From Leptospiraceae bacterium (lineage in GTDB: Bacteria > Spirochaetota > Leptospiria > Leptospirales > Leptospiraceae): a DNA stretch of 38,186 nt. Shown one piece after another: positions 8,836 through 28,976 of the stretch. The stretch spans positions 1-38,186 of the forward strand of contig JADKCW010000009.1 of the NCBI GenBank assembly GCA_016718635.1. Reading direction: 5' to 3'. Under the pieces are notes generated by a model. It was not told the origin of the DNA and did no database searches. It saw nothing but the letters and a program-made list of their open reading frames with translations. The translations under genes were made by a program, and so were the position numbers. Each line of letters starts with the position of its first letter. Position 1 is the first letter of the stretch.

Positions 8836-9736
8836 ATGAATTATAAAAAATAGTATTAGCCGGTGGGACTGGTTTTGTGGGAAAATACCTAAAGACAAAG
8901 TTTAGTGAATTGGGTTACGAAGTAAAAATTATTTCGAGGCAAAATGATAGTATCCAGTGGGATGATATTTCTTCCATCGTTGATGCCCTTGACAATTCAG
9001 AAATGCTAATTAACCTCGCAGGAAAATCCGTCGATTGTCGTTATAACAAAAAAAATAAAGAAGAAATTTTGAAATCAAGAACAGAAACTACCAGAATACT
9101 CGGAGAAGCGATTTTGAAATGTAAGAATCCTCCCGAACTTTGGATCAATTCTAGCACGGCAACCATTTACCGTCATGCGCAAGATCGACCAATGACAGAA
9201 AGCGGTGGAGAAATAGGAAGTGGATTTTCAGTTGGTGTAGCAACTCAATGGGAAAAACATTTTTTGATTTTCAATTACCAAAGACTAGACAAGTTGCTTT
9301 ACGCATGGCAATCGTTTTAGGAAAAGAGGGGGGAGTCATGACACCCTTTAAAAATCTAGTTCGCTTTGGTTTAGGCGGCAAACAAGGCGATGGAAATCAA
9401 ATGTTCAGTTGGATTCATATTGAGGATTTATTTACTATTATCCGCTTCTTACAATCCAATAAAAATATGACAGGGGCTTACAACTGTTCATCTCCCAATC
9501 CAGTTTCCAATGCCACTTTAATGCAATCACTAAGAAAGGCAATGAATGTAAAATTTGGTTTACCATCTCCTAAATTTCTTCTAGAAATTGGGGCAATCAT
9601 GATAAGAACAGAAACGGAGCTAATCTTAAAAAGCCGCTGGGTCATTCCAGAAAGATTACTGAAAGCGGGATTTCAATTTCAATTTTCTAATATTGACAAG
9701 GCGCTAGAAAATATTTTAATAGAAAAAGGGAGATAG
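8836..9736 (+). CDS. YfcH-like (TIGR01777/DUF1731) NAD-dependent epimerase/dehydratase family protein, two frameshifts
   Basis: MNYKK then, after a missing base in an a6 run, IVLAGGTGFVGKYL (Rossmann GxxGxxG). This continues as ORF 8877..9320 and then ORF 9248..9736 (..RQVALRMAIVLGKEGGV..RFGLGGKQGDGNQMFSWIHIEDL..). The second shift is in aaaaaacattttttg. Confidence 0.55.
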
Positions 9737-10162: not shown

Positions 10163-10738
10163 ATGAAAACAGCTATTTCGATTCCTGATGATTTATTTAA
10201 GACAGCAGAAAAAACAGCAAAGAAAATGGGTATTCCCAGAAGCCAGTTGTTTGCTCGGGCACTCGAAGAATTTATTCAGACACACAGTAAAAATTCTGTA
10301 ACAGAAAAATTGAACAAAATATACAGCAAGAATTTACCAAAATCTAAAACAAGTATTGATAAAGTATCTGTTCAGGCACTTCGCAAGAGTTTAAAAATGA
10401 CACGTGGTGAGATTTGGTGGGTTGATTTAGGTATTCCATTTGGAAGTGAACCAGGATTTAAAAGACCTGTATTAATTATTCAAGACGACGCATTTAATGA
10501 AAGTAATATTAGCACAATCATTGTTGCTGCTATTTCCTCTAATCTTATTCTTGCCGAAGCTCCAGGCAATGTTCTTTTAAACAAGAAAGAATCAAATCTT
10601 TCAAAAGATTCCGTTGTAAATGTTTCACAAATTGTTACTTTAGATAGAGAGAGATTCACTGAACGCGTCGGAAAATTAAATCCGAAGCTAATGGCAAATG
10701 TTGAAAGGGGAATCAAATTAGTTGTAGGTATTAAATGA
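10163..10738 (+). CDS. Single ORF encoding an RHH/MazE-like antitoxin N-terminus fused in frame to a MazF/PemK-family endoribonuclease toxin domain
   Basis: N-terminus MKTAISIPDDLFKTAEKTAKKMGIPRSQLFARALEEFI is a ribbon-helix-helix. From internal Met 78, MTRGEIWWVDLGIPFGSEPGFKRPVLIIQDDAFN...VSQIVTLDRERF has MazF/PemK hallmarks. There is no stop codon between the two halves. Confidence 0.55.
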   Translation: MKTAISIPDDLFKTAEKTAKKMGIPRSQLFARALEEFIQTHSKNSVTEKLNKIYSKNLPKSKTSIDKVSVQALRKSLKMTRGEIWWVDLGIPFGSEPGFKRPVLIIQDDAFNESNISTIIVAAISSNLILAEAPGNVLLNKKESNLSKDSVVNVSQIVTLDRERFTERVGKLNPKLMANVERGIKLVVGIK

Positions 10739-14683: not shown

Positions 14684-17600
14684 ATGTTAGAGGATTTAAA
14701 AATTTCAACGAAGCTTAGGCTGGGATATGGATTAGTTATATTTTTCCTCGTCATACTAAGCACTATTGTGTTCTATTTGATGAGTCATTTGGGAGGAAGT
14801 TTGGAGAAAATTACCAAAGTGTATTCACCTAAAGTTGTCCGAAGCAATAATATTATTGACCGCGTCAATGAAAATACAATTTACCTACTCAGCGCAACAC
14901 TAAAAGAATCGAGAGAAGAAGTATTGCTTGCAAAAGATAGAATTCTGCAAAACCGTTCAGGCAATGTGCAAGATATTCAGTTTCTCCGTGAAAATGCAAA
15001 TACGGAAAAGGAAAGATTTGGCATACAGGAATTAGCCGATGCAAGAACAAAATTCATTCCCTATCAGGACAAATACATTTCGCAATTAGAAGTAGGCGAC
15101 TACAAAGGAGCAAAAGATACTTTACCTCAATTCTCAGTTACTCAGCAGCAATATTTGAAAGCGGTAAAAGATTTAATCGTATATGAAACAGAGCTGTCTA
15201 CTACTGCCAATCAAGAGTCACTCAATGATTCTCAAAAAAGCGAGTTCCTATGTGCTAGTTATATCGTCTATCGCTATTCTTTTTTCTATCTTCTTCAGTT
15301 ACATGACTTCAAATTCTATTACGAAACCGTTAGCCGCTCTACTCCTTGCTATTCGCAAAGTGGAAAAAGAAGGAGAATTTTCTATTAAAGTAGATTCAAC
15401 CTCCAAGGATGAAGTAGCAGAGGTCGCTAACTCACTCAGTAGTTTGTTAGCAATGCTAGAGAATATGAAAAAGATACTATGTTACTTACAGAATCTGCCA
15501 TTCAGGGAAAACTTTCTACTCGTGCAGATATTTCTCGTTATCCCGGTGACTTTAGAAAGGTTGTAGAAGGGGTTAATAAGACATTAGACGCTGTGATTGG
15601 ACCTTTAAATGTTGCCGCAGATTATGTAGATAAAATATCCAAAGGAAATATCCCTTCCAAAATCACCGATACCTACAACGGAGATTTTAACACTATCAAA
15701 AATAATCTCAACACTTGCATTGGCTCCCTTTTGGGTATTATTGAATCCATGAATGATATGTCCAAACAGCATGAACTGGGAGACATTGATGTAAAAATTG
15801 ACGTTTCAAAATTCCAAGGTGCATACCAAGAAATGGTTACTGGTATCAATAAAATGGTATTTGACCATATTAGCGTTAAAAAAAGAGCAATGGGAATTTT
15901 TAAAGAATTTGGAGAAGGAAATTTTGAGGCAAATATTGATAAGCTACCTGGCAAAAAAGCTTTCATCAATGAAATAATTGATCAAGTCCGATTGAACCTA
16001 AAAGCGTTGATTAGTGATGCTGGAAAATTGGCAGATGCTGCTGTCAAAGGTCAATTAGCTACGCGTGCCGATGCAACCAAACACAAAGGAGACTTCCGTA
16101 AAATTGTCGAAGGGGTTAACGCTACATTAGACGCAGTTATTACACCTTTAAACGTTGCCGCTGATTATGTAGACAAAATCTCTAAAGGAATTATTCCTCC
16201 CAAAATTACAGAGAGTTATAATGGAGATTTTAATACTATTAAGAATAACTTAAACCTACTCATTGACTCTGAAAGTCTGCTTACCAATGTAGCCTCTTCT
16301 CTATCTATTGGAAATACAGAAGTCAGAATTGAAATGAGATCACAAGGAGACTCCCTATTCAAGAATATCCAAAGTATGATTGCAAATACCCAACATGATG
16401 CCGCCGTTGTTCAAAGTTTAGCGGAGGGAAATCTAGATGTCGAAATAAAAGTCATGTCAGATAAAGACATCATGGCAAAGAGTAACGTTGCCATTCGAAA
16501 TGCACTGAAAGAACTAGTTGCCGATGCTAATATGCTTTCCCGCGCGGCTATTGAAGGTAAGCTTTCAACAAGAGCAGATGCATCAAAACACAAAGGCGAT
16601 TTCCGAAAAGTAGTCGAAGGGGTTAATCAGACATTAGACGCTGTAATCAGTCCAATGCAGGAATCCTCCAACGTATTATTGGAATTAGCCAAAGGAAATC
16701 TAAGTGCAAGAGTCAACGGTGATTACAAAGGCGATCATGCCATCATCAAGAATGCTTTAAATTCCAGTCTCGAAACTTTAAACGAATATGTGGGAGAAAT
16801 TTCCAGAGTCCTGTCTTCCATGTCTTCGGGCGACTTAACTATCGAGATTAAGAAAGCGTTTAATGGTGATTTTGCGGAAATCAAAGAAGCTTTAAAGCTT
16901 ATCATTGAATCGTTCAATGATTTGATCGGGGAAATCATCGATGCATCGGAGCAAATCTTTATTAGCTCTAGGCAAGTTGCCGACTCCAGCCAATCTCTCT
17001 CACAAGGCTCTAACGAACAAGCAAGCAGTGTAGAAGAAATAACTGCTACTCTTGCTGTCATAGAACTCAAAGCTAAGGATAATGCCAATAATGCGAAGAA
17101 TGCTAGTGATCGCGCTCTCAATGTAAAAGACCAAGCAGTATCAAGCAATAACGAAATGAAAGGGATGCTCAAAGCAATGGAAGAAATTAGCGAAACATCC
17201 GAAAACATTGCTAAGATTATCAAAGAAATTGATGCAATTGCATTCCAAACAAACATACTCGCATTAAACGCTGCTGTAGAAGCAGCACGTGCAGGACAAC
17301 ATGGAAAAGGATTTAACGTAGTTGCAGAAGAAGTCCGTAACCTCGCATCTCGTAGTGCCAATGCTGCAAAAGAAACTACTAAGATGATTGAAGGTTCGAT
17401 TAAAACTGTTCGTTCTGGTATGGACATTGCGGGAAGAACTGCAGGCGAATTAAACAAGATGACTGCAGGTGTTGTAGAAGTGACAGACCTGGTGAAAGAC
17501 ATTGCAGCGGCATCTATGGAGCAATCTTCTTCTGTTGTAGAGACGACCTCTGGCATCAATCAGATTTCGCAGGTGACTATGAGTGCAGCCGCAACAGCAG

Positions 17601-17749
17601 AAGAAAGTTCTGCGGCTAGTCTTGAGTTGTCGAGCCAAGCAGAAGCATTTCAAAATATGGTAAAACGTTTCAATATTAAAAGGGGAAAAGAGGAAAAAAA
17701 GAAAGAAGCACCGCTAACAACGGGGAAAAGAAAGATTAACCTCAAATAA
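14684..17749 (+). CDS. Methyl-accepting chemotaxis protein 1: TM1, four-helix-bundle periplasmic sensor, TM2, HAMP repeats, MCP signalling domain; two frameshifts
   Basis: ORFs 14684..15388, 15183..15566 and 15479..17749 are collinear pieces. They give TM1 ([16 protein letters not shown]), a helical periplasmic domain, TM2 plus HAMP (..[42 protein letters not shown]..), repeated ..[58 protein letters not shown].. units, and a highly conserved MCP signalling domain (..[46 protein letters not shown]..). A Shine-Dalgarno site aagagga precedes the ATG. Confidence 0.75.
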
Positions 17750-17811: not shown

Positions 17812-20520
17812 ATGTTTCAAAATTATCAATTAAATCTAAGCTTATTTTTAGTTTTATAGGAGTGCTTTTCTTATTCTTGGGAACAGCAATATATAATTTA
17901 TTTGGATTAAACGAAATTCAGCATTCGGTCAATGATATTGTCAATGATAGAATTCCAAAGATTCTAACTTTGCATGAAATGAATAATAATATTAATCAGA
18001 CAGCCCGTTCCACTAGAAGTATACTTTTACTGGAAGATATAAAAGAAATTCAGAAGGAAAGAGATATTATTATTAATATCAGAGACGAAAAGAATCCAAG
18101 GATCATTGAATATTTAAAGACTGTAGTTAGACGCGAAAGAGGAAAAGAATTATTAGCCGATGTAATGAAGACGAGAAGTGCATATGTAGAGACTTTAAAT
18201 CAGTATTTAGATTTATTCGATAGTGGCAAAAAGAAGAGGCAAAGAAATTACTTCTATCAGAACTAAGACCAAGACAGCATGATCTTTCAAAAGCAGTAGC
18301 AAGTTTCAGTGATTACCAAAAGATATTATTACTTCAGAAGGCGCAAAGACAGATGCAAGTGTAAAGAAAATATTTTTAGCCTTTTCTATCATTTCCATTC
18401 TTGCGACAATCATCATCATACTCGTTACGATTTTTACCACGAAGAGCATCAATCGCATTACTTCAAGAATGGATCAATTTATTTCTGATATAAATATTTT
18501 TGTTGTTGGTTTAGAATCAAAAGGCGATTTTTCTTCTAGATTACAAGTTACTCATAATGATGAGATGGGCAAAACATCAGAAGCCTTGAATCGATTGATG
18601 AATATGTTTCAGACAATGCTTACAGAAACTAATATGCTTTCTAAAGCAGCTATAGAAGGAAGACTAAGCACAAGAGCCAAGATCGATTCTTATATTGGTG
18701 ATTTTAAGAGTATTCTAGAAGGGGTTAATAAGACGATTGATTCATTAGTTGGATTTCTAGATCAAATGCCAATTCCAGCAATGATTATTGACAAGGAATA
18801 CAATGTTCTTTATATGAATTCCGCCGGTGCAAAATTAAATGGACGAACAGGTAAAGAATTAACAGGAACAAAATGCTTTGATCATTTTAAGACGAATGAC
18901 TGTAAAACGGAAAATTGTGCCTGTTATTTGACAATGCGGGATAATCGAAATATTGCGCGAGATAACGTAGCAAGACCTGGAAATTTAGTCTTAGATATTA
19001 ATTATTCTGCCGTTCCTATCAAGAACGAAAAGGGAGAAGTTGTTGCTGCCTTTGAAGTTGTAATGGATCAAACCCAAATTAAAAATGCGATGGGAGTTTC
19101 CAAAAAGATTGGAGAATACCAAATCAAAGAAGTTACAAAATTAGTTGACGCATTAGGGAAATTGGAGAATGGAAATACAAGTATTGCCATCAAACCAGAA
19201 GAATCAGATCAAGATACTAAATTGGTTAAAGAGCAATATGAAAAAATTTATGTATCACTTGAGCAAACCGTTCAAGCACTTACACTTTTAGTGACAGATG
19301 CTAATATGCTTTCCCGCGCAGGCATTGAAGGTAAACTTTCAACAAGAGCAGATGCATCAAAGCACAAAGGCGATTTCCGAAAAGTAGTCGAAGGAATTAA
19401 TCAAACGTTAGACGCTCTAATTCTTCCGACTCAGGAAGCGACTAACGTATTAGTGGAGTTGTCTAAAGGAAATTTAAAATCCAAAGTTACCGGAGACTAT
19501 AAAGGTGACCATGCAATTCTTAAGAATGCGCTCAACTCAAGCCTCGGAACACTCAATGAGTATGTAGGAGAAATTTCTAGAGTTCTTTCTTCTATGTCGG
19601 CGGGCGACTTAACTGTTGAAATAAAAAAAGAGTTTAATGGTGATTTTGCGGAAATCAAAGAAGCCTTAAAACTTATCATTGAATCTTTCAATGACTTGAT
19701 CGGAGAGATCATGGATGCATCGGAGCAAATCTTTGTTAGCTCCAGACAAGTTGCTGATTCGAGTCAATCTCTTTCACAAGGATCAAATGAGCAAGCGAGT
19801 AGTATAGAAGAAATTACTGCTACTCTCTCTCTCATAGAACTCAAAGCTAAGGATAATGCCAATAATGCGAAGAATGCAAGTTATCGTGCTCTCAATGTAA
19901 AAGACCAAGCAGTATCAAGCAATAACGAAATGAAAGGGATGCTCAAAGCAATGGAAGAAATCAGTGAAACTTCTGAAAACATTGCTAAGATTATCAAAGA
20001 AATTGATGCAATTGCATTCCAAACAAACATACTCGCATTAAACGCCGCTGTAGAAGCAGCACGTGCAGGACAACATGGAAAAGGATTTAACGTAGTTGCA
20101 GAAGAAGTCCGTAACCTCGCATCTCGTAGTGCCAATGCTGCAAAAGAAACCACTAAGATGATTGAAGGTTCAATTAAAACGGTTCGTTCAGGTATGGACA
20201 TTGCGGGAAGAACTGCGGGCGAATTAAACAAGATGACTGCGGGTGTTGTAGAAGTTACTGATCTTGTAAAAGACATTGCAACAGCATCTGTCGAACAATC
20301 TTCTTCCGTTGTAGAGACCACTGCTGGCATCAATCAGATTTCGCAGGTGACTATGAGTGCAGCCGCAACAGCAGAAGAAAGTTCTGCGGCTAGTCTTGAG
20401 TTGTCGAGCCAAGCAGAAGCATTTCAAAATATGGTAAAAAGATTTAATATCAAAAAAACAAGAGATGATAAGAAAAGAGACGCGCAGACAACCGCAAAAA
20501 GAAGAATTGAACTGAAATAA
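17812..20520 (+). CDS. Methyl-accepting chemotaxis protein 2, with a Cys-rich PAS-like insert; at least three frameshifts in the N-terminal third
   Basis: MFQNYQLN.. then ..FIGVLFLFLGTAIYNLFGLNEIQHSVNDIVNDRIPKILTLHEMNNNINQTAR.. parallels the MCP3 N-terminus ([56 protein letters not shown]). TM2 and HAMP follow (..FLAFSIISILATIIIILVTIF..). There is a PAS-like insert FLDQMPIPAMIIDKEYNVLYMNSAGAKLNGRTGKELTGTKCFDHFKTNDCKTENCACYLTMRDN...VVAAFEVVMDQT. Then come HAMP repeats and a signalling domain about 97% identical in nucleotide sequence to that of MCP1. Confidence 0.75.
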
Positions 20521-20530
20521 GGAGAAGTTT

Positions 20531-21028
20531 ATGGTAACAGCAACAGTAGATGAAGAAATAGAGGAAGACTCACAGGATACGATGGAAGATTTATATATTA
20601 TCTTTTTCATTGATGGAAGAGAATATGGAATAGAGATTCGTTACTTGATTGAAATCATTGCATTTCAACCCGTTACATTTGTTCCAAATCTTCCTAAGTA
20701 TGTAAAGGGAGTCCTTAACTTACGAGGAAAAATTATTCCTGTTCTAGATGTGCGAACCCGATTTGGAATGCCGTCGATCGACTATACCGAGAATACTTGC
20801 ATATTAATTCTAAACTTTAACAACTTAAGTGCCAGTCTGATTGTCGATGGAGTCAAAGAAGTATTAAAAATTCCAAAAGATAATATTGAGCCTTCGCCTG
20901 GATTCGAAGAAGCTAATGTAGAACGATTCGTAGATTCCATCGGTAAGTCCGGTGACACCTTGAAAATATTGATCAATGTTGAAAAATTCATTCATGAGAA
21001 AGATATAAAGGAAATTATTGCTCCTTAA
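20531..21028 (+). CDS. cheW: CheW coupling protein (copy 1)
   Basis: 165 aa. ..YIIFFIDGREYGIEIRYLIEIIAFQPVTFVPNLPKYVKGVLNLRGKIIPVLDVRTRFGMP..ILILNFNNLSASLIVDGVKEVLKIPKDNIEPSP.. is a canonical CheW. A Shine-Dalgarno site aaggag is 11 nt after the MCP2 stop. Confidence 0.85.
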   Translation: MVTATVDEEIEEDSQDTMEDLYIIFFIDGREYGIEIRYLIEIIAFQPVTFVPNLPKYVKGVLNLRGKIIPVLDVRTRFGMPSIDYTENTCILILNFNNLSASLIVDGVKEVLKIPKDNIEPSPGFEEANVERFVDSIGKSGDTLKILINVEKFIHEKDIKEIIAP

Positions 21029-21334: not shown

Positions 21335-24300
21335 ATGTTTAAAAACCTAAGTATTAAAAACAAATTATTATCACTGTTTATAGGAATCATTCTTTTTTTT
21401 GCAGGTTTGATTTTCTATTCTATAAAACAGATGGATTCTGTCGCAGCAGTTGCAGACAAATTGGCAAATGATAGAATTCCCAAAGTAATGGCTTTAGCGG
21501 AGATTTCGAAGAATGTCAATATCATTGCAAGAGCCGCTCGGAACATGTATATCTTCAGAGAAAAATCAATGGTTGATGAAGAAAAAAATACCATTCTCAA
21601 ATCCAGAGAAATCATCGGACAAAAATTTGACTATTTAAAGCCCATTATCAAAAATCCAAAAGGACAGGAGATTTTGACAGAGGCAATGCAGACTCGCTCC
21701 GAGTTTATCAAAGCGCAAGACTCTTTTATTTCCGCAATCGAAAGGGATGACAAAGACGAAGCTTACAATATATTAATCAAAGACTTCCGTCCTATTCAAT
21801 TAAAATACATCGGTCACTTAGATAAATTATTAGAATTTCAAGCCACCTTTGCTCAAAATGAAGCAAACCTGTCTGTAGGAAATATAATCGAAGTTACCAA
21901 TAGAATATCATGGATTTCTATTCTATTTGGAATACTCGTAGCTTATCTTGGTTATACAATCGTAACCTCCATTCTTAATTCCATTCGTAATCTGGAAAAA
22001 AATGTCAATGAAATCGGGAAAGAAGGTAACTTTGATACAAAAATAGAAACCGATTCTACAGATGAAATCGGGGTATTTGCCGGAAGCTTTAAAGAGATGA
22101 TGAAAGGTATGAAGGACATGCTCGCTGATGCCAACATGCTTTCCCGCGCTGCCGTTGAAGGAAGACTTGCTACAAGAGCGGACGCAACGAAATACAAAGG
22201 TGATATGCGCAAAATTGTAGAAGGGGTTAATCAGACATTAGACTCTGTAATCAATCCTCTCAACGTTGCTGCTGATTACGTAGAGAAAATCTCTCGTGGT
22301 GCTATCCCTGCTAAAATTACTGACACTTACAACGGTGATTTCAATGTTCTTAAAAACAACATAAACAATGCTATTGATAATGTAAACGCACTTGTGGCTG
22401 ATGCCGGTATGCTTGCGAAAGCAGCAGTAGAAGGTAAACTTGCAACTCGCGCTGATGCTACTAAGCACCAAGGCGATTATCGCAAGATTGTAGAAGGGGT
22501 TAACCAGACATTAGACTCTGTAATCAATCCTCTCAACGTTGCCGCTGATTATGTAGATAAAATCTCCCGTGGTGCAATACCTGCTAAGATTACAGATCAA
22601 TACAACGGTGACTTTAACGTTCTAAAGAACAACTTAAACAATGCAATTGATAATGTAAACGCACTTGTGGCTGATGCCAGTATGCTTGCGAAAGCAGCAG
22701 TAGAAGGTAAGCTTGCAACACGTGCTGATGCTACTAAACACCAAGGCGACTATCGTAAGATTGTAGAAGGGGTTAACCAGACATTAGACTCTGTTATCAA
22801 TCCTCTCAATGTTGCAGCAGATTACGTTGATAAAATATCCCGTGGCGCAATCCCTGCAAAGATTACTGACACTTACAATGGTGACTTTAACACAATTAAG
22901 AACAACTTGAACAACGCTATCGACAATGTAAATTCACTTGTGGCTGATGCCGGTATGCTTGCGAAAGCAGCTATCGAAGGTAAGCTTGCAACTCGTGCTG
23001 ATGCTACTAAACACCAAGGCGACTATCGTAAGATTGTGGAAGGAGTTAATCAGACGTTAGACTCGGTGATTGGACCTCTCAATGTTGCAGCGGATTATGT
23101 AGATAAAATTTCCCGTGGTGCTATTCCTGCTAAGATTACCGACACTTACAACGGTGACTTCAACGTTCTAAAGAACAACTTAAACAATGCAATTGATAAT
23201 GTAAACGCACTTGTGGCTGATGCCGGTATGCTTGCGAAAGCAGCCGTAGAAGGTAAACTTGCAACTCGTGCTGATGCTACTAAACACCAAGGCGATTATC
23301 GCAAGATTGTAGAAGGGGTTAATCAGACGTTAGACTCTGTTATCAATCCTCTCAACGTTGCCGCTGATTATGTAGACAAAATTTCTCGTGGTGCAATACC
23401 TGAAAAAATCACTGCTACTTACAATGGTGACTTTAATACAATTAAGAATAACTTAAACAATGCGATTGATAATGTAAACGCACTTGTAGCTGATGCCGGT
23501 ATGCTTGCGAAAGCAGCAGTAGAAGGTAAACTTGCAACTCGTGCTGATGCTACTAAACACCAAGGCGACTATCGTAAGATTGTGGAAGGGGTTAATCAGA
23601 CATTAGACTCTGTTATTGGTCCTCTTAACGTTGCCGCGGATTATGTAGATCGTATTGCGAAAGGAAACACACCTCCAATTATTACTGATACGTATAATGG
23701 CGATTTCAACACTCTAAAGAATAACCTCAATTTGGCGATCAATGCGATTAACCAACAAGCAGAGGCAGCAGTTGCCATTTCTGAAGGAAATCTCTCCGTC
23801 AAAGTAAATGTTCGCTCTGAAAATGATTTACTCTCAAAGAGTTTAATCACTGTTATGCAAGTCTTGCAAGCCTTACAAAAAGAATTACTTCGTCTTACAG
23901 AAGCCTCTAAAGCAGGTATGTTAGATGAAAGAGGAAAACCAGAACAATTCAAAGGTGCCTATGCAGATGTTTTAATTGGCGTAAACACAATGCTCGATGC
24001 GATTCTAATTCCAATAGGGGAAGGAAATAGAGTATTAAGACTTATTAGAGGCGGAAATTTACGGGAACGAGTAGAGATTGAATGTCGTGGTGATCATCAA
24101 AAAATGAAAGATGCCGTCAACGGAGTCATTTGTGGCTTACTGATCTTGTAGCCTATGTAAATAAGATATCTAACGGTGATTTGACTGCAACAATGAACAA
24201 AGCTTCCGAACAAGATCAAATTCATGAGTGGTTGATGCTAATGAAAAATAATATCGGCAACCTCGTCTCTGATGCCGGTATGCTTTCAAAAGCGGCTATC

Positions 24301-26586
24301 GAAGGTAAGCTTGCAACACGTGCTGATGCTACTAAACACCAAGGTGACTATCGTAGAATTGTAGAAGGGGTTAATCAGACGTTAGACTCGGTAATCGGTC
24401 CTCTTAACGTTGCTGCTGATTATGTTGATAAAATCTCTCGTGGTGCTATCCCTGAAAAGATCAGCGATACTTATAACGGTGACTTTAATGTTATCAAGAA
24501 CAACTTAAACAATGCGATTGATAATGTAAACGCACTTGTGGCTGATGCCGGTATGCTCGCGAAAGCAGCTATTGAAGGTAAGCTCGCAACACGTGCGGAT
24601 GCAACTAAACACCAAGGCGACTATCGTAAAATTGTAGAAGGGGTTAATCAGACGTTAGACTCTGTGATCGGTCCTCTCAATGTAGCCGCTGATTATGTTG
24701 ATAAAATCTCTCGTGGTGCTATTCCTGCTAAGATTACTGACACTTACAACGGTGACTTCAACGTTATCAAGAACAACTTAAACAATGCGATTGATAATGT
24801 AAACGCACTTGTGGCTGATGCCGGTATGCTTGCGAAAGCAGCAGTAGAAGGTAAGCTTGCAACTCGCGCTGATGCGACTAAACACCAAGGCGATTATCGT
24901 AAAATTGTAGAAGGAGTTAACCAGACGTTAGACTCTGTGATAGGTCCTCTTAATGTTGCCGCGGATTATGTAGATAAAATTTCCCGCGGGGCTATTCCGA
25001 CTAAGATTACGGATACTTACAATGGAGACTTTAACACAATTAAAAACAACTTAAACAACGCAATTGATAATGTAAATGCTCTCGTGGCTGATGCCGGTAT
25101 GCTTGCGAAAGCAGCTATTGACGGTAAGCTTGCAACACGTGCAGATGCTACTAAACACCAGGGCGACTATCGTAGAATTGTGGAAGGAGTTAATCAGACA
25201 TTAGACTCGGTGATCGGTCCACTTAACGTTGCTGCTGATTATGTAGATAGAATTTCTCGCGGTGCAATTCCAAATCAAATTACGGATACTTATAATGGGG
25301 ATTTTAACACTCTAAAGAACAACCTTAATCGTTGTATTGAAAACGTAAACGCACTTGTGGCTGATGCAGGTATGCTTGCGAAAGCGGCTATTGATGGTAA
25401 GCTTGCAACTCGTGCAGATGCGACCAAACACCAAGGTGACTTCCGTAAGATTGTGGATGGGGTAAACAACACATTAGACGCTGTTATCCTTCCAGTGCAA
25501 GAAGCTTCCGCAGTGTTGCTAGAATTGTCTAAAGGAAACTTAAAAGCTAGAATGCTCGGTGATTACAAGGGAGATCATGCTACTATTAAGACTGCTCTTA
25601 ATACAAGTCTGGTAACGTTAAACGATTATGTGGGGGAAATTTCGCGTATCCTCTCTTCTATGTCAGCAGGTGACTTAACTGTTGAAGTAACAAAAGACTT
25701 TATGGGAGATTTCGCTGAGATTAAAAAAGCACTCACTCTCATCGTTGATTCCTTCAATGAGCTCATTGGTGAAATCATCAATGCTTCGGATCAAATCCTC
25801 ATTAGCTCTAGACAAGTGGCTGACTCCAGCCAATCTCTCTCGCAAGGATCAAACGAACAAGCTAGTAGCGTAGAAGAGATTACTTCAACGCTGGCAGTAA
25901 TCGAACTCAAAGCTAAGGATAACGCGAAGAATGCGAAGGACGCAAGTGACCAAGCTATGAACGTGAAAGACCAAGCAGTTTCTAGTAATAACGAAATGAA
26001 GGGAATGCTCAAAGCGATGGAAGAAATCAGTGAAACTTCCGAAAACATTGCGAAGATTATCAAAGAAATTGATGCAATCGCATTCCAAACAAATATACTC
26101 GCATTAAACGCTGCGGTGGAAGCTGCCCGTGCAGGTCAACATGGAAAAGGATTTAACGTGGTGGCGGAAGAAGTTCGTAATCTCGCTTCTCGTAGCGCGA
26201 ATGCTGCGAAAGAAACCACTAAGATGATTGAAGGCTCGATTAAAACAGTTCGCTCTGGTATGGACATTGCGGGAAGAACTGCAAACGAATTGAATAAGAT
26301 GACAGCTGGTGTTGTAGATGTTACAGAGCTAGTGAAAGACATCGCGAGTGCTTCGATTGAGCAGTCTTCGTCGGTAGTAGAGACTACAACTGGTATCAAT
26401 CAGATTTCACAGGTGACAATGAGTGCTGCTGCTACAGCAGAAGAAAGCTCAGCAGCTAGTCTTGAGTTGTCTAGCCAAGCAGAAGCATTCCAAACAATGG
26501 TAAAAAGATTTCAAATTAAGAAATCAAAAGATGATAAAAGAAGAGACCAACAATCTGGCGGAAAGAAAAAAATTGATTTGAAGTAA
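21335..26586 (+). CDS. Giant poly-HAMP methyl-accepting chemotaxis protein 3 (about 1750 aa if read through one frameshift at about 24125)
   Basis: ORF 21335..24151 plus ORF 24130..26586. A +1 shift in ggagtcatttgtggcttactga restores ..[27 protein letters not shown]... Architecture: TM1, 4HB-type periplasmic domain, TM2, HAMP, 6 tandem di-HAMP units, a divergent HAMP-like linker of about 170 aa, 5 more di-HAMP units, 2 HAMP, then the MCP signalling domain and a KR-rich tail. Confidence 0.8.
22127..23765 (+). repeat. Tandem array of six near-identical 273-nt (91-aa) coding repeats, each a di-HAMP unit, within MCP3
   Basis: Unit starts (gatgcc...) at 22127, 22400, 22673, 22946, 23219 and 23492. 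The period is exactly 273 nt. The unit is [91 protein letters not shown]. Each unit holds two HAMP-like helix-connector-helix segments of alternating type. Confidence 0.85.
24271..25635 (+). repeat. Second tandem array of five 273-nt di-HAMP coding repeats within MCP3
   Basis: Unit starts at 24271, 24544, 24817, 25090 and 25363. The last unit diverges (..[24 protein letters not shown]..). Confidence 0.85.
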
Positions 26587-26598
26587 GGAGTAAAGTGT

Positions 26599-27087
26599 AT
26601 GGTAACGACATTTGAAGAAGAACAATTAGAAGAATCTGAAGATACTATGGAGGATCTCTATATCATCTTTTTCATCGATGGAAGAGAGTATGGTATAGAG
26701 ATTCGTTACTTGATTGAAATCATTGCGTTTCAACCTGTGACTTTTGTTCCAAACTTACCAGAATATGTTAAGGGAGTAATCAACCTTCGAGGGAAGATTA
26801 TTCCCGTAATTGATGTGCGGCTAAGATTCGGTTTACCCAAGATAGACTATACCGAATTCACCTGCATATTGATTATGAATTTTAACAATCTAAGTGCAGG
26901 GCTTATCGTCGATGGAGTCAAAGAAGTTTTAAAAATTCCAAAAGATTGTATTGAGCCCTCACCAGGATTTGAAGAAGCAAATATGGAGCGATTCGTCGAT
27001 TCCATTGGAAAGTCAGGCGATACATTGAAAATATTGATCGACCTGAATAAGTTTATTCATGAGAAAGATGTAAAAGGAATTGCTTAG
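26599..27087 (+). CDS. cheW: CheW coupling protein (copy 2, paralogue of 20531..21028)
   Basis: 162 aa, roughly 85% identical to copy 1 (..YIIFFIDGREYGIEIRYLIEIIAFQPVTFVPNLPEYVKGVINLRGKIIPVIDVRLRFGLP..). Confidence 0.85.
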   Translation: MVTTFEEEQLEESEDTMEDLYIIFFIDGREYGIEIRYLIEIIAFQPVTFVPNLPEYVKGVINLRGKIIPVIDVRLRFGLPKIDYTEFTCILIMNFNNLSAGLIVDGVKEVLKIPKDCIEPSPGFEEANMERFVDSIGKSGDTLKILIDLNKFIHEKDVKGIA

Positions 27088-27095
27088 GTTCTACA

Positions 27096-28976
27096 ATGCT
27101 TGGAGAAAATGAACTTTCAGACCTTGTGCTTGATTCACAAGAGATATTGGATAAAGCAGAAGCAATTCTGATCCAATTGGAAAAAAGTTTAACTGAGTCA
27201 ACGGTTGACGCAGATAAGGTAAATTCATTATTCCGCTATTTCCATACACTCAAAGGAAATGCGGGATTTTTCAATTTCAATGTGATAGTAAACCTATCGC
27301 ATTCAGCAGAATCATTATTAGAGATTGTAAGAAATGACAATTCTCTTCTTGATCAAAAAATGATTCAGCTCTTCATGGAAGCAAGAGATACTCTATACGA
27401 AATATTCACAAATTTAAACGAAAACAAAACAGATACAATGTATAAAGAGAAGGCGGATACTTTAATTCCCCGACTCTTCTATATAAAAGAAAATCTAAAA
27501 GCAGAGTCTTCAGAGCCAAAGAAAGAAGAGCCTAGGTTTGGAATCTTCAAAAAGAAAATTGTGCTTTCTGATACTCCAATAACAGAAGAGGATAATAAGG
27601 AGTTGCCAGTTTCGAATGAACCTGCCCCTACTCCGGAAAATTCAGAATCTGATAAGTTAGATAAACATATTACAGAGAGAGCCACGCAAGAAAATCCTGT
27701 TTTAGAAAAAAAGATTCAAAATACTATAGAGGCAAATAACGGTAATTCGAATGGACAAGCTACAGTAAAAAGAGACATTCGAATCGAAACAGAGAAATTA
27801 GATTACCTACTAGACATGATTGGTGAGCTAGTGATAGCTGAATCTCTTGTAACTCAAAATCCAGACATCAAAGAACTAGATCTTCCGAACTTTTCTATTC
27901 AATCTTCCTATTTACGTAAAGTAGTCCGTAATCTACAAGAAGTATCCTTGCAGCTAAGGATGATTACCCTCGAAGGTTTGTTTAATAAAATGGAACGACT
28001 TGTTCGAGACTTAGCACAAAAAACAGGAAAGAAAGTGGGTCTTCAAGTTACGGGAAAAGAAACAGAAATTGATAAGAATGCCCTTGAAATATTAACAGAT
28101 CCACTAGTTCATATTATCCGCAACTGTATCGATCATGGATTGGAAACAGGCAAAGAGAGATTAGCCAAAGGCAAAGTAGAATCCGGTCATATCAAGATTG
28201 AAGCAATGCATTCAGGAAATGAAGTATGGATTATTATTTCTGATGATGGTGCAGGCTTAGATAGAGATAGAATTTTGAAAAAAGCAATGGCTCGCGGATT
28301 AATCAAAGAAGGAGAAGACGAAAATCTAAAAGACGAAAGAATTTGGGATTTTATTTTTCAACCTGGATTCTCGACTAGTGATAGAGTAACTGATATTTCA
28401 GGACGCGGAGTAGGACTTGATATAGTTCGCAGAAATATAGCAAAGATCAACGGCGATGTTGAAATCAAGACGAAAAAAGACCAGGGAGCATCGTTCATTC
28501 TAAAGCTACCTCTTACAATTGCTATCATTGAAGGTATGGTGGTAATCTACAACGGGGTATTCTATATTATCCCCACAATAGACGTAAAAGAAACACTGAA
28601 TTTGGCAGAATCGAAAATCGACTATATCGATCAGGACAAAAAAGTAATTCGCTTCCGAGAGCAGCTAATACCCGTTGTCTCCGTAGAGAGATTACTCAAT
28701 CACGATTCAAGTGACAAGGACTCTAACTACGAAAATTCTTTATATGTAATTATTGTGGAGTATAAGAATAATTCGCTAGCCCTAGTATTTGATGGAATTG
28801 TAGGAAATCAATCGGTTGTAATTAAACCAATTCCAGATTATTTAAAAGGAACAAAGGGCTTTTCAGGTTGCACAATCCTGGGAAGTGGGAATATTGGAAT
28901 GATTCTAGACATTAGATTCTTTATTAATAATTACTACAAGGAAAACAAAGAATCCGAAGCAGCACATGGACAATAA
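27096..28976 (+). CDS. cheA: CheA histidine kinase (P1 HPt, P3 dimerisation, P4 HATPase, P5 CheW-like; no obvious P2)
   Basis: 626 aa. The HPt region is ..FRYFHTLKGNAGFFNF... P3 is ..IRIETEKLDYLLDMIGELVIAESLV... P4 has ..HIIRNCIDHGLE.. and ..GRGVGLDIVRRNI... P5 is ..LPLTIAIIEGMVV..SLALVFDGIVGNQSVVIKPI... Confidence 0.9.
   Translation: MLGENELSDLVLDSQEILDKAEAILIQLEKSLTESTVDADKVNSLFRYFHTLKGNAGFFNFNVIVNLSHSAESLLEIVRNDNSLLDQKMIQLFMEARDTLYEIFTNLNENKTDTMYKEKADTLIPRLFYIKENLKAESSEPKKEEPRFGIFKKKIVLSDTPITEEDNKELPVSNEPAPTPENSESDKLDKHITERATQENPVLEKKIQNTIEANNGNSNGQATVKRDIRIETEKLDYLLDMIGELVIAESLVTQNPDIKELDLPNFSIQSSYLRKVVRNLQEVSLQLRMITLEGLFNKMERLVRDLAQKTGKKVGLQVTGKETEIDKNALEILTDPLVHIIRNCIDHGLETGKERLAKGKVESGHIKIEAMHSGNEVWIIISDDGAGLDRDRILKKAMARGLIKEGEDENLKDERIWDFIFQPGFSTSDRVTDISGRGVGLDIVRRNIAKINGDVEIKTKKDQGASFILKLPLTIAIIEGMVVIYNGVFYIIPTIDVKETLNLAESKIDYIDQDKKVIRFREQLIPVVSVERLLNHDSSDKDSNYENSLYVIIVEYKNNSLALVFDGIVGNQSVVIKPIPDYLKGTKGFSGCTILGSGNIGMILDIRFFINNYYKENKESEAAHGQ

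Follow-up and report, generated by a model that had tools for sequence, protein, structure and literature searches.

A contig of 38,186 nucleotides from a Leptospiraceae bacterium (GenBank assembly GCA_016718635.1, contig JADKCW010000009.1; in its whole length, the window) encodes a methyl-accepting chemotaxis protein (MCP), MCP2, whose cytoplasmic part carries a PAS domain with four closely set cysteines. We find that this domain belongs to a family of PAS domains that share the cysteine motif, is almost exclusive to chemoreceptors and is usually wired into HAMP_2 arrays. Because three of the cysteines are invariant across a family of more than 1,200 representative clusters, their conservation indicates clearly that the cluster is functional. 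On the combined analysis we favour, with about even chances of being right, the view that the Cys-motif PAS domain is an iron-sulphur (Fe-S), or other thiolate-bound metal, sensor of redox state or O2 that drives chemotaxis. In a more specific form, which we put forward tentatively, it would define the first iron-sulphur-cluster chemoreceptor family, with a three-cysteine Fe-S PAS domain whose fourth site is variable or open, which is wired to HAMP arrays and which often occurs in tandem.

The fold is that of a PAS domain. As modelled, the domain spans 18751..19119 (+; 123 amino acids) within an open reading frame (ORF) at 18469..20520 (+) of 683 amino acids, and Pfam PAS_4 matches ORF residues 97-203 (nt 18757-19077) with an E value of 3.8e-8 in the whole protein and of 9.9e-10 for the domain alone (39.1 bits, cut-off 23.1). 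PAS_9 (34.3 bits, cut-off 27) and TIGR00229 (27.1 bits, cut-off 22.9) also score above their curated cut-offs. An AlphaFold model built from a 57-sequence alignment of homologous domains (A1) reached a mean predicted local distance difference test score (pLDDT) of 95 and a predicted template modelling score (pTM) of 0.84; from the single sequence the pLDDT was 34. The model shows a five-stranded antiparallel sheet with flanking helices that is structurally similar to solved PAS domains, with strands at 10-14, 18-22, 68-74, 81-91 and 97-106 (domain numbering), ordered as in PAS, and helices at 24-28, 34-37, 57-64 and 108-122. Its nearest structural neighbours are the flavin- and haem-binding PAS domains NifL, LOV, FixL and DosP. 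Helix 108-122 follows strand 97-106 directly, and at this junction the last strand ends in a D-Q-T motif (19066..19074, +), from which the C-terminal helix starts; we take this motif to correspond to 'DIT', through which PAS cores are coupled to the coiled coil that follows them.

A preliminary description of this DNA, made from its letters, had proposed a cytoplasmic PAS fold between the first HAMP domain and the HAMP repeats. Pfam and NCBIfam profiles, the model and the structural neighbours all agree with that proposal, and so does the domain order, with HAMP at ORF residues 17-45, the best HAMP_2 match at 298-363 and MCPsignal at 476-628. The location is cytoplasmic because the domain lies downstream of the second transmembrane segment (TM2) and the HAMP domain. 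The sequence quoted there, MPIPAMIIDKEY...VVMDQT, was also correctly read and placed inside the ORF.

The cysteine cluster, CFDHFKTNDCKTENCAC, was read from the sequence at 18874..18924 (+). That it exists was rightly noticed; its first interval is one residue longer than had been reported, so that the spacing is C-x8-C-x4-C-x-C and not C-x7-C. In ORF numbering the four residues are C136, C145, C150 and C152 (C356, C365, C370 and C372 of the full-length protein after the repair described below; C42, C51, C56 and C58 of the domain), and they are the sole cysteines of the ORF, of the repaired 903-residue protein and of its orthologue P0008. In the model, C42 is placed at the short helix that succeeds the fourth PAS element (after residue 41). 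C51 and C56 are carried by a loop of 12 residues that is irregular in secondary structure but has a pLDDT of 98, and C58, the last of the four, belongs to the opening turn of helix F. Alignment of the family profile to a LOV domain of known structure in the PDB pairs C42 with the cysteine of the NCRFL motif that forms the flavin adduct and faces the pocket.

The insert had been treated as a one-off. It is in fact a member of a large conserved family. A word-indexed homologue search found just one protein with the single sequence and two with a profile, and we therefore turned to an exhaustive HMMER scan of 1.84 billion cluster representatives (clusters at 50% identity). This returned 3,328 proteins at E<1e-3, 1,202 at E<1e-10 and 185 at E<1e-30. 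Tandem copies, two to six per protein, occur in 88 of the best 150 proteins. For column counts, 263 near-full-length domain instances were extracted and aligned. The cluster is not a chance pattern, because its first three cysteines are kept in 262 (Cys42), 256 (Cys51) and 263 (Cys56) of these, and because cysteine makes up 3.5% of residues inside the domains versus 0.38% outside, a nine-fold difference. Cys58 is present in 169 (64%) and is otherwise Val, Thr or Leu. The surroundings are conserved as well, with Lys41 in 239 instances, Thr48 and Thr53 in 234 each, Phe46 in 223, an Asp, Asn or Glu at position 44 in 223, and His or Asp at position 50 in 118 and 117, respectively; at the C-terminal end D106 is found in 239 and T108 in 208, and D14, N23, Y85 and E102 are, like D106, nearly invariant. 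Either C58 or a His, Asp or Glu at position 50 is present in 248 instances. The resulting family motif is K-C-[YF]-[DNE]-x-F-K-T-x-[HD]-C-x-T-x-x-C-x-[C/x].

Two main subfamilies can be told apart, a 'His type' with CYDLFKTxHC and an 'Asp type' with CYDHFKTSDC..CAC. The MCP2 copy, KCFDHFKTNDCKTENCAC, belongs to the latter and conforms to the family motif, with C42, C51 and C56 all in place. We considered whether a single histidine shifts between positions 45 and 50 and rejected this, since 61 canonical copies have Asp50 and neither H45 nor H50; the histidine pattern at these positions mostly reflects the two subfamilies. The 8-4 intervals are shared by 236 of the 263 instances, 165 of them with the full 8-4-1 spacing and 71 with 8-4 alone. 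A few distant copies have 7-4 or 4-4 spacing and keep a C-x-T-x-x-C core; this core may, from the divergent copies that retain it, be the minimal conserved element. Among the multi-PAS proteins P0002, P0004 and P0021, some divergent copies read C-x4-C-x4-C (ACEHNLCGTKDCP) or C-x7-C-x4-C (CQQWGADICGTEKC).

In which proteins does the family occur? The chemoreceptor hairpin motif is present in 116 of the best 150 representatives and a histidine kinase in one, most of the remaining 33 having none of the output-domain motifs that were searched. A Pfam run on every third representative (n=50) gave the same picture, with MCPsignal in 40, HAMP_2 in 33, HAMP in 27, 4HB_MCP in 12, and HisKA with HATPase in one. 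MCP2 is built likewise: its PAS domain lies within an MCP, after a half HAMP_2 element and before HAMP units, and the junction G.L..R.D...G...G.N.T...LVG.LD..P.P, which leads from the half HAMP_2 into the PAS N-terminus, is found in both the family consensus and MCP2. CheW or CheA is encoded within 6 kb in 22 of 45 related loci (loci of at least 12 kb). A genome scan confirmed 240 relatives; it used an Asp-type sub-alignment, by which the taxonomic picture is biased. The top 80 of these are mostly Desulfobacterota (Geobacter, Geomonas, Trichlorobacter, Desulfurivibrio, Desulfobulbia, Desulfuromonadaceae), next to Kapabacteria, Bacteroidota, Chloroflexota, Nitrospirota, Imhoffiella, Sulfuricella, Thiobacillaceae, Methylovulum and more. 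The relatives thus come mainly from anaerobes and gradient organisms, and one family representative stems from a Thorarchaeota genome.

The preliminary description had suggested metal, Fe-S or redox sensing that feeds the chemotaxis pathway. This is the best-supported reading, because there are three-cysteine Fe-S PAS precedents in OrpR and NreB and because the family is associated almost exclusively with chemoreceptors; the cofactor itself, however plausible by analogy, is something we infer. One of the two precedents is OrpR, a sigma54 activator of Desulfovibrio vulgaris Hildenborough whose PAS domain has C52, D/E54, C61 and C65 and a redox- and O2-sensitive [4Fe-4S] cluster (PMC8359166). 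Like the MCP2 family, OrpR has a cytoplasmic PAS domain with three conserved cysteines and a conserved acidic residue nearby, and its C52-x-D/E54-x6-C61, compared by published motif alone, is the same pattern as C42-x-D/N/E44-x6-C51 of the family, which MCP2 keeps as C42, D44 and C51. The third cysteine follows at x3 in OrpR but at x4 in the family, OrpR has no C-x-C, and its output is a sigma54 AAA+ activator rather than a chemoreceptor. Its host belongs to the anaerobic Desulfobacterota, the phylum of most relatives found for the family. The other is NreB, in which CX2CX11C binds [2Fe-2S] in Bacillus licheniformis, and CX2CX11CX2C binds [4Fe-4S] in Staphylococcus carnosus (PMC13478379). As proposed here for the Cys-motif family, three or four cysteines of the helix E-F region hold the NreB cluster inside the PAS pocket, and the three-cysteine version leaves one coordination site free for a small-molecule signal. 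MCP2 is not of the NreB type, with CX8CX4C(XC) and an MCP output in place of CX2CX11C(X2C) and a histidine kinase, and NreB was absent from the sequence and fold neighbours of the Cys-motif PAS domain in profile-to-PDB and fold searches.

How might such a domain speak to the chemotaxis machinery? We envisage that the three invariant cysteines would bind a [4Fe-4S] or [2Fe-2S] cluster in the canonical PAS cofactor pocket, where a fourth ligand might come from C58, from His or Asp in position 50, or from the acidic side chain at position 44. O2, a change in redox potential, NO or sulphide might then oxidise, remove or ligate the cluster and thereby alter the PAS conformation. From there the D-Q-T motif and the C-terminal helix could relay the signal to the HAMP and HAMP_2 units downstream, and these would in turn determine, by way of the signalling domain and CheW, how active CheA is. 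Whereas the PAS fold, the existence of the family, its conserved cysteines, its confinement to chemoreceptors and the che-cluster setting are observed here, we infer in this scheme that a metal is bound, which metal it is, what the stimulus is and in which direction the response goes.

Several observations weigh against an Fe-S cluster. The family spacing, when compared with those of the characterised Fe-S PAS sensors, matches none exactly (x3 in OrpR as opposed to x4, and CX2C in NreB). The motif has no CxxC element, and a set of Cys3 plus His, Asp or Cys would suit zinc equally well. The host lineage, the Leptospiraceae, is generally aerobic, and an O2-labile cluster would therefore be harder to maintain there. 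The bias of the relatives towards anaerobes, having been found with an Asp-type search pattern, may moreover reflect phylogeny.

A rival reading, which we consider unlikely, is that three cysteines and a Cys, His or Asp bind zinc or, in its stead, some other thiophilic ion (Cu(I), Cd or As(III), for example); the site would either be purely structural and stiffen the helix E-F loop or act as a zinc-thiolate redox switch. In its favour, a fourth-ligand candidate stands beside the three invariant cysteines in the 248 of 263 instances mentioned above, and the high-confidence loop without secondary structure in the model is typical of metal-stapled loops. Zinc sites would also be stable in an aerobic host. 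Precedents exist both in zinc-binding cytoplasmic PAS domains (WalK) and in zinc-binding sensor domains of chemoreceptors, namely CZB, which Pfam found in two proteins of the family and did not find in MCP2. CZB (TlpD, DgcZ) is a four-helix bundle with a zinc site of three His and one Cys that serves chemoreceptors as a sensor of oxidants and redox state, e.g., HOCl and H2O2; it resembles the site proposed for MCP2 in being a metal-thiolate sensor on a chemoreceptor, but its fold is not PAS. Against zinc, 36% of instances lack the fourth cysteine, whereas a structural site would normally retain its full set of four ligands. Nor does the motif contain a CxxC knuckle, and C42 aligns with a pocket-facing cofactor residue rather than with a peripheral position. 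A purely structural zinc ion would furthermore leave the restriction to chemoreceptors, the multiplication in tandem and the anaerobe bias unexplained.

It is also conceivable, but in our view improbable, that the cysteines work without a metal, as a reversible thiol/disulphide or persulphide switch that reports cytoplasmic redox state or reactive sulphur or oxygen species to chemotaxis. Thiol-based redox sensors are common, relatives are found in sulphur-cycling organisms, and close-set conserved cysteines in a protein that is otherwise free of cysteine would fit such a role. A disulphide, however, needs two cysteines and not three invariant ones with fixed spacing and conserved Lys, Thr and His/Asp neighbours; an i,i+2 pair combined with fixed x8 and x4 intervals looks more like a coordination shell.

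Aer2 of Pseudomonas aeruginosa and Vibrio, an O2 chemoreceptor of the PAS-haem kind, resembles MCP2 in architecture: its PAS domain, too, is set in line with HAMP domains on either side and upstream of MCPsignal; some Aer2-type receptors contain multiple tandem PAS copies, as the Cys-motif family does, and an Aer2-like route from PAS through HAMP to kinase control is likely in MCP2. Among PDB sequences the family profile matches the Aer2 PAS domain best, though for no more than the first 36 residues (profile positions 2-37; E 5e-5). A soluble protein, Aer2 binds its haem b via a histidine, whereas MCP2 is transmembrane, has a periplasmic four-helix bundle (4HB) and carries its cysteine cluster where the similarity to Aer2 ends. 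In the profile alignment the haem pocket of Aer2, with its proximal His and O2-stabilising Trp, has no counterpart in the Cys-motif domain, the cofactor region being the part that does not align. The NCBIfam Aer2 model NF041847, whose cut-off is 1200 bits, gives MCP2 only 260 bits and matches nothing but its signalling region (residues 361-671). An organic cofactor or ligand (flavin, a small metabolite, or a haem whose axial ligand is a thiolate), with the cysteines in a secondary role, is therefore very improbable even though the closest structural neighbours bind flavin or haem, the N-terminal third of the domain resembles the Aer2 PAS and the architecture is Aer2-like, because CxxCH is lacking, the likeness to Aer2 stops before the cofactor region, and one thiolate would be enough for haem or a flavin adduct and leave three invariant cysteines unexplained.

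As the preliminary description had noted, the MCP2 protein contains no CxxCH haem-c motif. This separates it from the c-type haem PAS sensors (Geobacter GSU0582 and GSU0935, Desulfovibrio DcrA), which are periplasmic and bind haem covalently via CxxCH. Those sensors share with the MCP2 family the PAS fold, the occurrence in chemoreceptors and the bacterial groups in which they are found, but the MCP2 PAS domain is cytoplasmic. We also considered the copper chemoreceptor McpR of Caulobacter, which is unrelated: its sensor domain is another one and relies on a single Cys and a single His.

The large, conserved and chemoreceptor-specific family of Cys-cluster PAS domains has apparently not been described so far. 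Pfam and NCBIfam returned only generic PAS models for the domain, in NCBIfam the PAS S-box model, and hold no curated family for the motif; the signalling domain scored below threshold to named chemoreceptors of NCBIfam. No close relative has been solved in the PDB, against whose sequences phmmer matched nothing with the single MCP2 domain. A search of 8 million open-access papers and preprints yielded none on this motif or on an Fe-S PAS chemoreceptor. Neither an Fe-S nor a cysteine-based receptor is mentioned in a 2026 review of aerotaxis receptors, and the Fe-S motifs mentioned in a 2023 census of PAS domains are of the NreB type only.

If the Cys-motif PAS domain does hold an Fe-S cluster, chemoreceptors would gain a new cofactor class, distinct from the FAD (Aer), haem (Aer2, HemAT, DcrA), di-iron (DcrH, ODP) and zinc (CZB) on which the known sensors for aerotaxis and energy taxis rely. 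What has been seen in OrpR and NreB would then apply to a far larger family, and anaerobes, gradient organisms and some archaea would have a direct sensor for redox, O2, NO or sulphide taxis. The domain is abundant in Geobacter and in Desulfobulbia-type anaerobes, whose steering along redox gradients is poorly understood, and with about 120 residues it is small enough to be expressed for testing.

The MCP2 gene as a whole extends further upstream than the PAS-bearing ORF. The preliminary description had missed its true start at 17812, which is separated from that ORF by three single-base deletions (after nt 17821, 18233 and 18321, two of them within runs of A). In a tblastn search, P0008 (HRG48085.1, a 903-residue protein from a Leptospiraceae metagenome-assembled genome) matched the window in three reading frames from 17820 on. 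Inserting one base per deletion site restores a complete chemoreceptor gene at 17812..20520 (+) of 903 amino acids, 865 of which are identical to P0008 (96% overall, 94% over the PAS domain). These frameshifts are probably assembly errors rather than signs of pseudogenisation, because MCP1, MCP3 and other genes of the window are also split into overlapping ORFs. The split long genes are MCP1 (14684-17749), MCP2 (17812-20520), MCP3 (21335-26586) and an epimerase-family gene (8877-9736). The assembly probably carries indel errors of the kind typical of long reads, and caution is therefore due with other ORF boundaries in the window.

The repaired N-terminus consists of a hydrophobic segment, a periplasmic four-helix-bundle ligand-binding domain (17862..18263, +; 4HB_MCP_1, Pfam PF12729, E 1e-11), whose reading frame is not that of the rest of the gene, and a second hydrophobic segment (TM2). 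MCP2 is thus a transmembrane chemoreceptor with two inputs, the periplasmic bundle and the cytoplasmic PAS domain. Beyond the membrane, the Pfam order is HAMP, PAS, HAMP_2/HAMP and MCPsignal. The membrane-proximal HAMP lies at 18517..18603 (+; Pfam PF00672, 33.3 bits against a cut-off of 25). Directly ahead of the PAS domain, at 18634..18756 (+), stands a half HAMP_2-like helical element, EGRLSTRAKIDSYIGDFKSILEGVNKTIDSLVGFLD, which pairs, in an alignment with MCP1, with the first half of that receptor's HAMP_2 units. After the PAS domain, a helical linker followed by HAMP_2 and HAMP units (19120..19893, +; three HAMP_2 stretches in Pfam) leads to the signalling domain; the HAMP-like character of ORF residues ~218-270 was assigned by eye. 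The MCP signalling (kinase-control) domain occupies 19894..20352 (+; Pfam PF00015, E 8e-45).

Because its last 415 residues (from residue 270; 19276-20517, compared with 16502-17746) are 90% identical to MCP1, MCP2 looks like a recent paralogue of MCP1 that has a PAS module in place of part of the HAMP array. The 90% identity points to a recent duplication or gene conversion in which only the sensor and HAMP part was swapped.

MCP2 lies in a che cluster with the gene order MCP1, MCP2, CheW, MCP3, CheW, CheA, CheB and a CheY-like receiver. A CheW gene follows directly downstream (20531..21028, +; Pfam CheW, E 1e-31), and a second CheW, CheA and CheB are encoded at 26599..30045 (+; Pfam CheW; Hpt, H-kinase_dim, HATPase_c and CheW; CheB_methylest and Response_reg). 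These CheW, CheA and CheB proteins constitute the pathway that MCP2 feeds. MCP3, between the two CheW genes, is a giant chemoreceptor of ~1,750 amino acids if its two overlapping ORFs are joined; tandem repeats at 22208-23650 and 24269-25488, with 5.3 and 4.5 copies of a 273-bp (91-residue) di-HAMP unit at 86-87% identity, make its poly-HAMP array unusually long.

Elsewhere in the window, the match of the ORF at 30038-31102 to HATPase_c is only partial. Right after the che genes comes a bacterial vault-like gene (31759-34251), whose 830-residue product combines a major vault protein shoulder domain (E 6e-24, eukaryotic), a vault repeat and an SPFH/Band 7 domain. Upstream of the chemoreceptors, a PemK/MazF-type toxin ORF (10163-10738) with an N-terminal extension of ~80 residues could be a fused or mis-started toxin-antitoxin gene. 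A MASE1-PAS-HisKA protein (34970-36043) stops short of its ATPase domain and is probably truncated by a frameshift as well; downstream of its gene, 36484-37014 encodes a receiver-domain protein.

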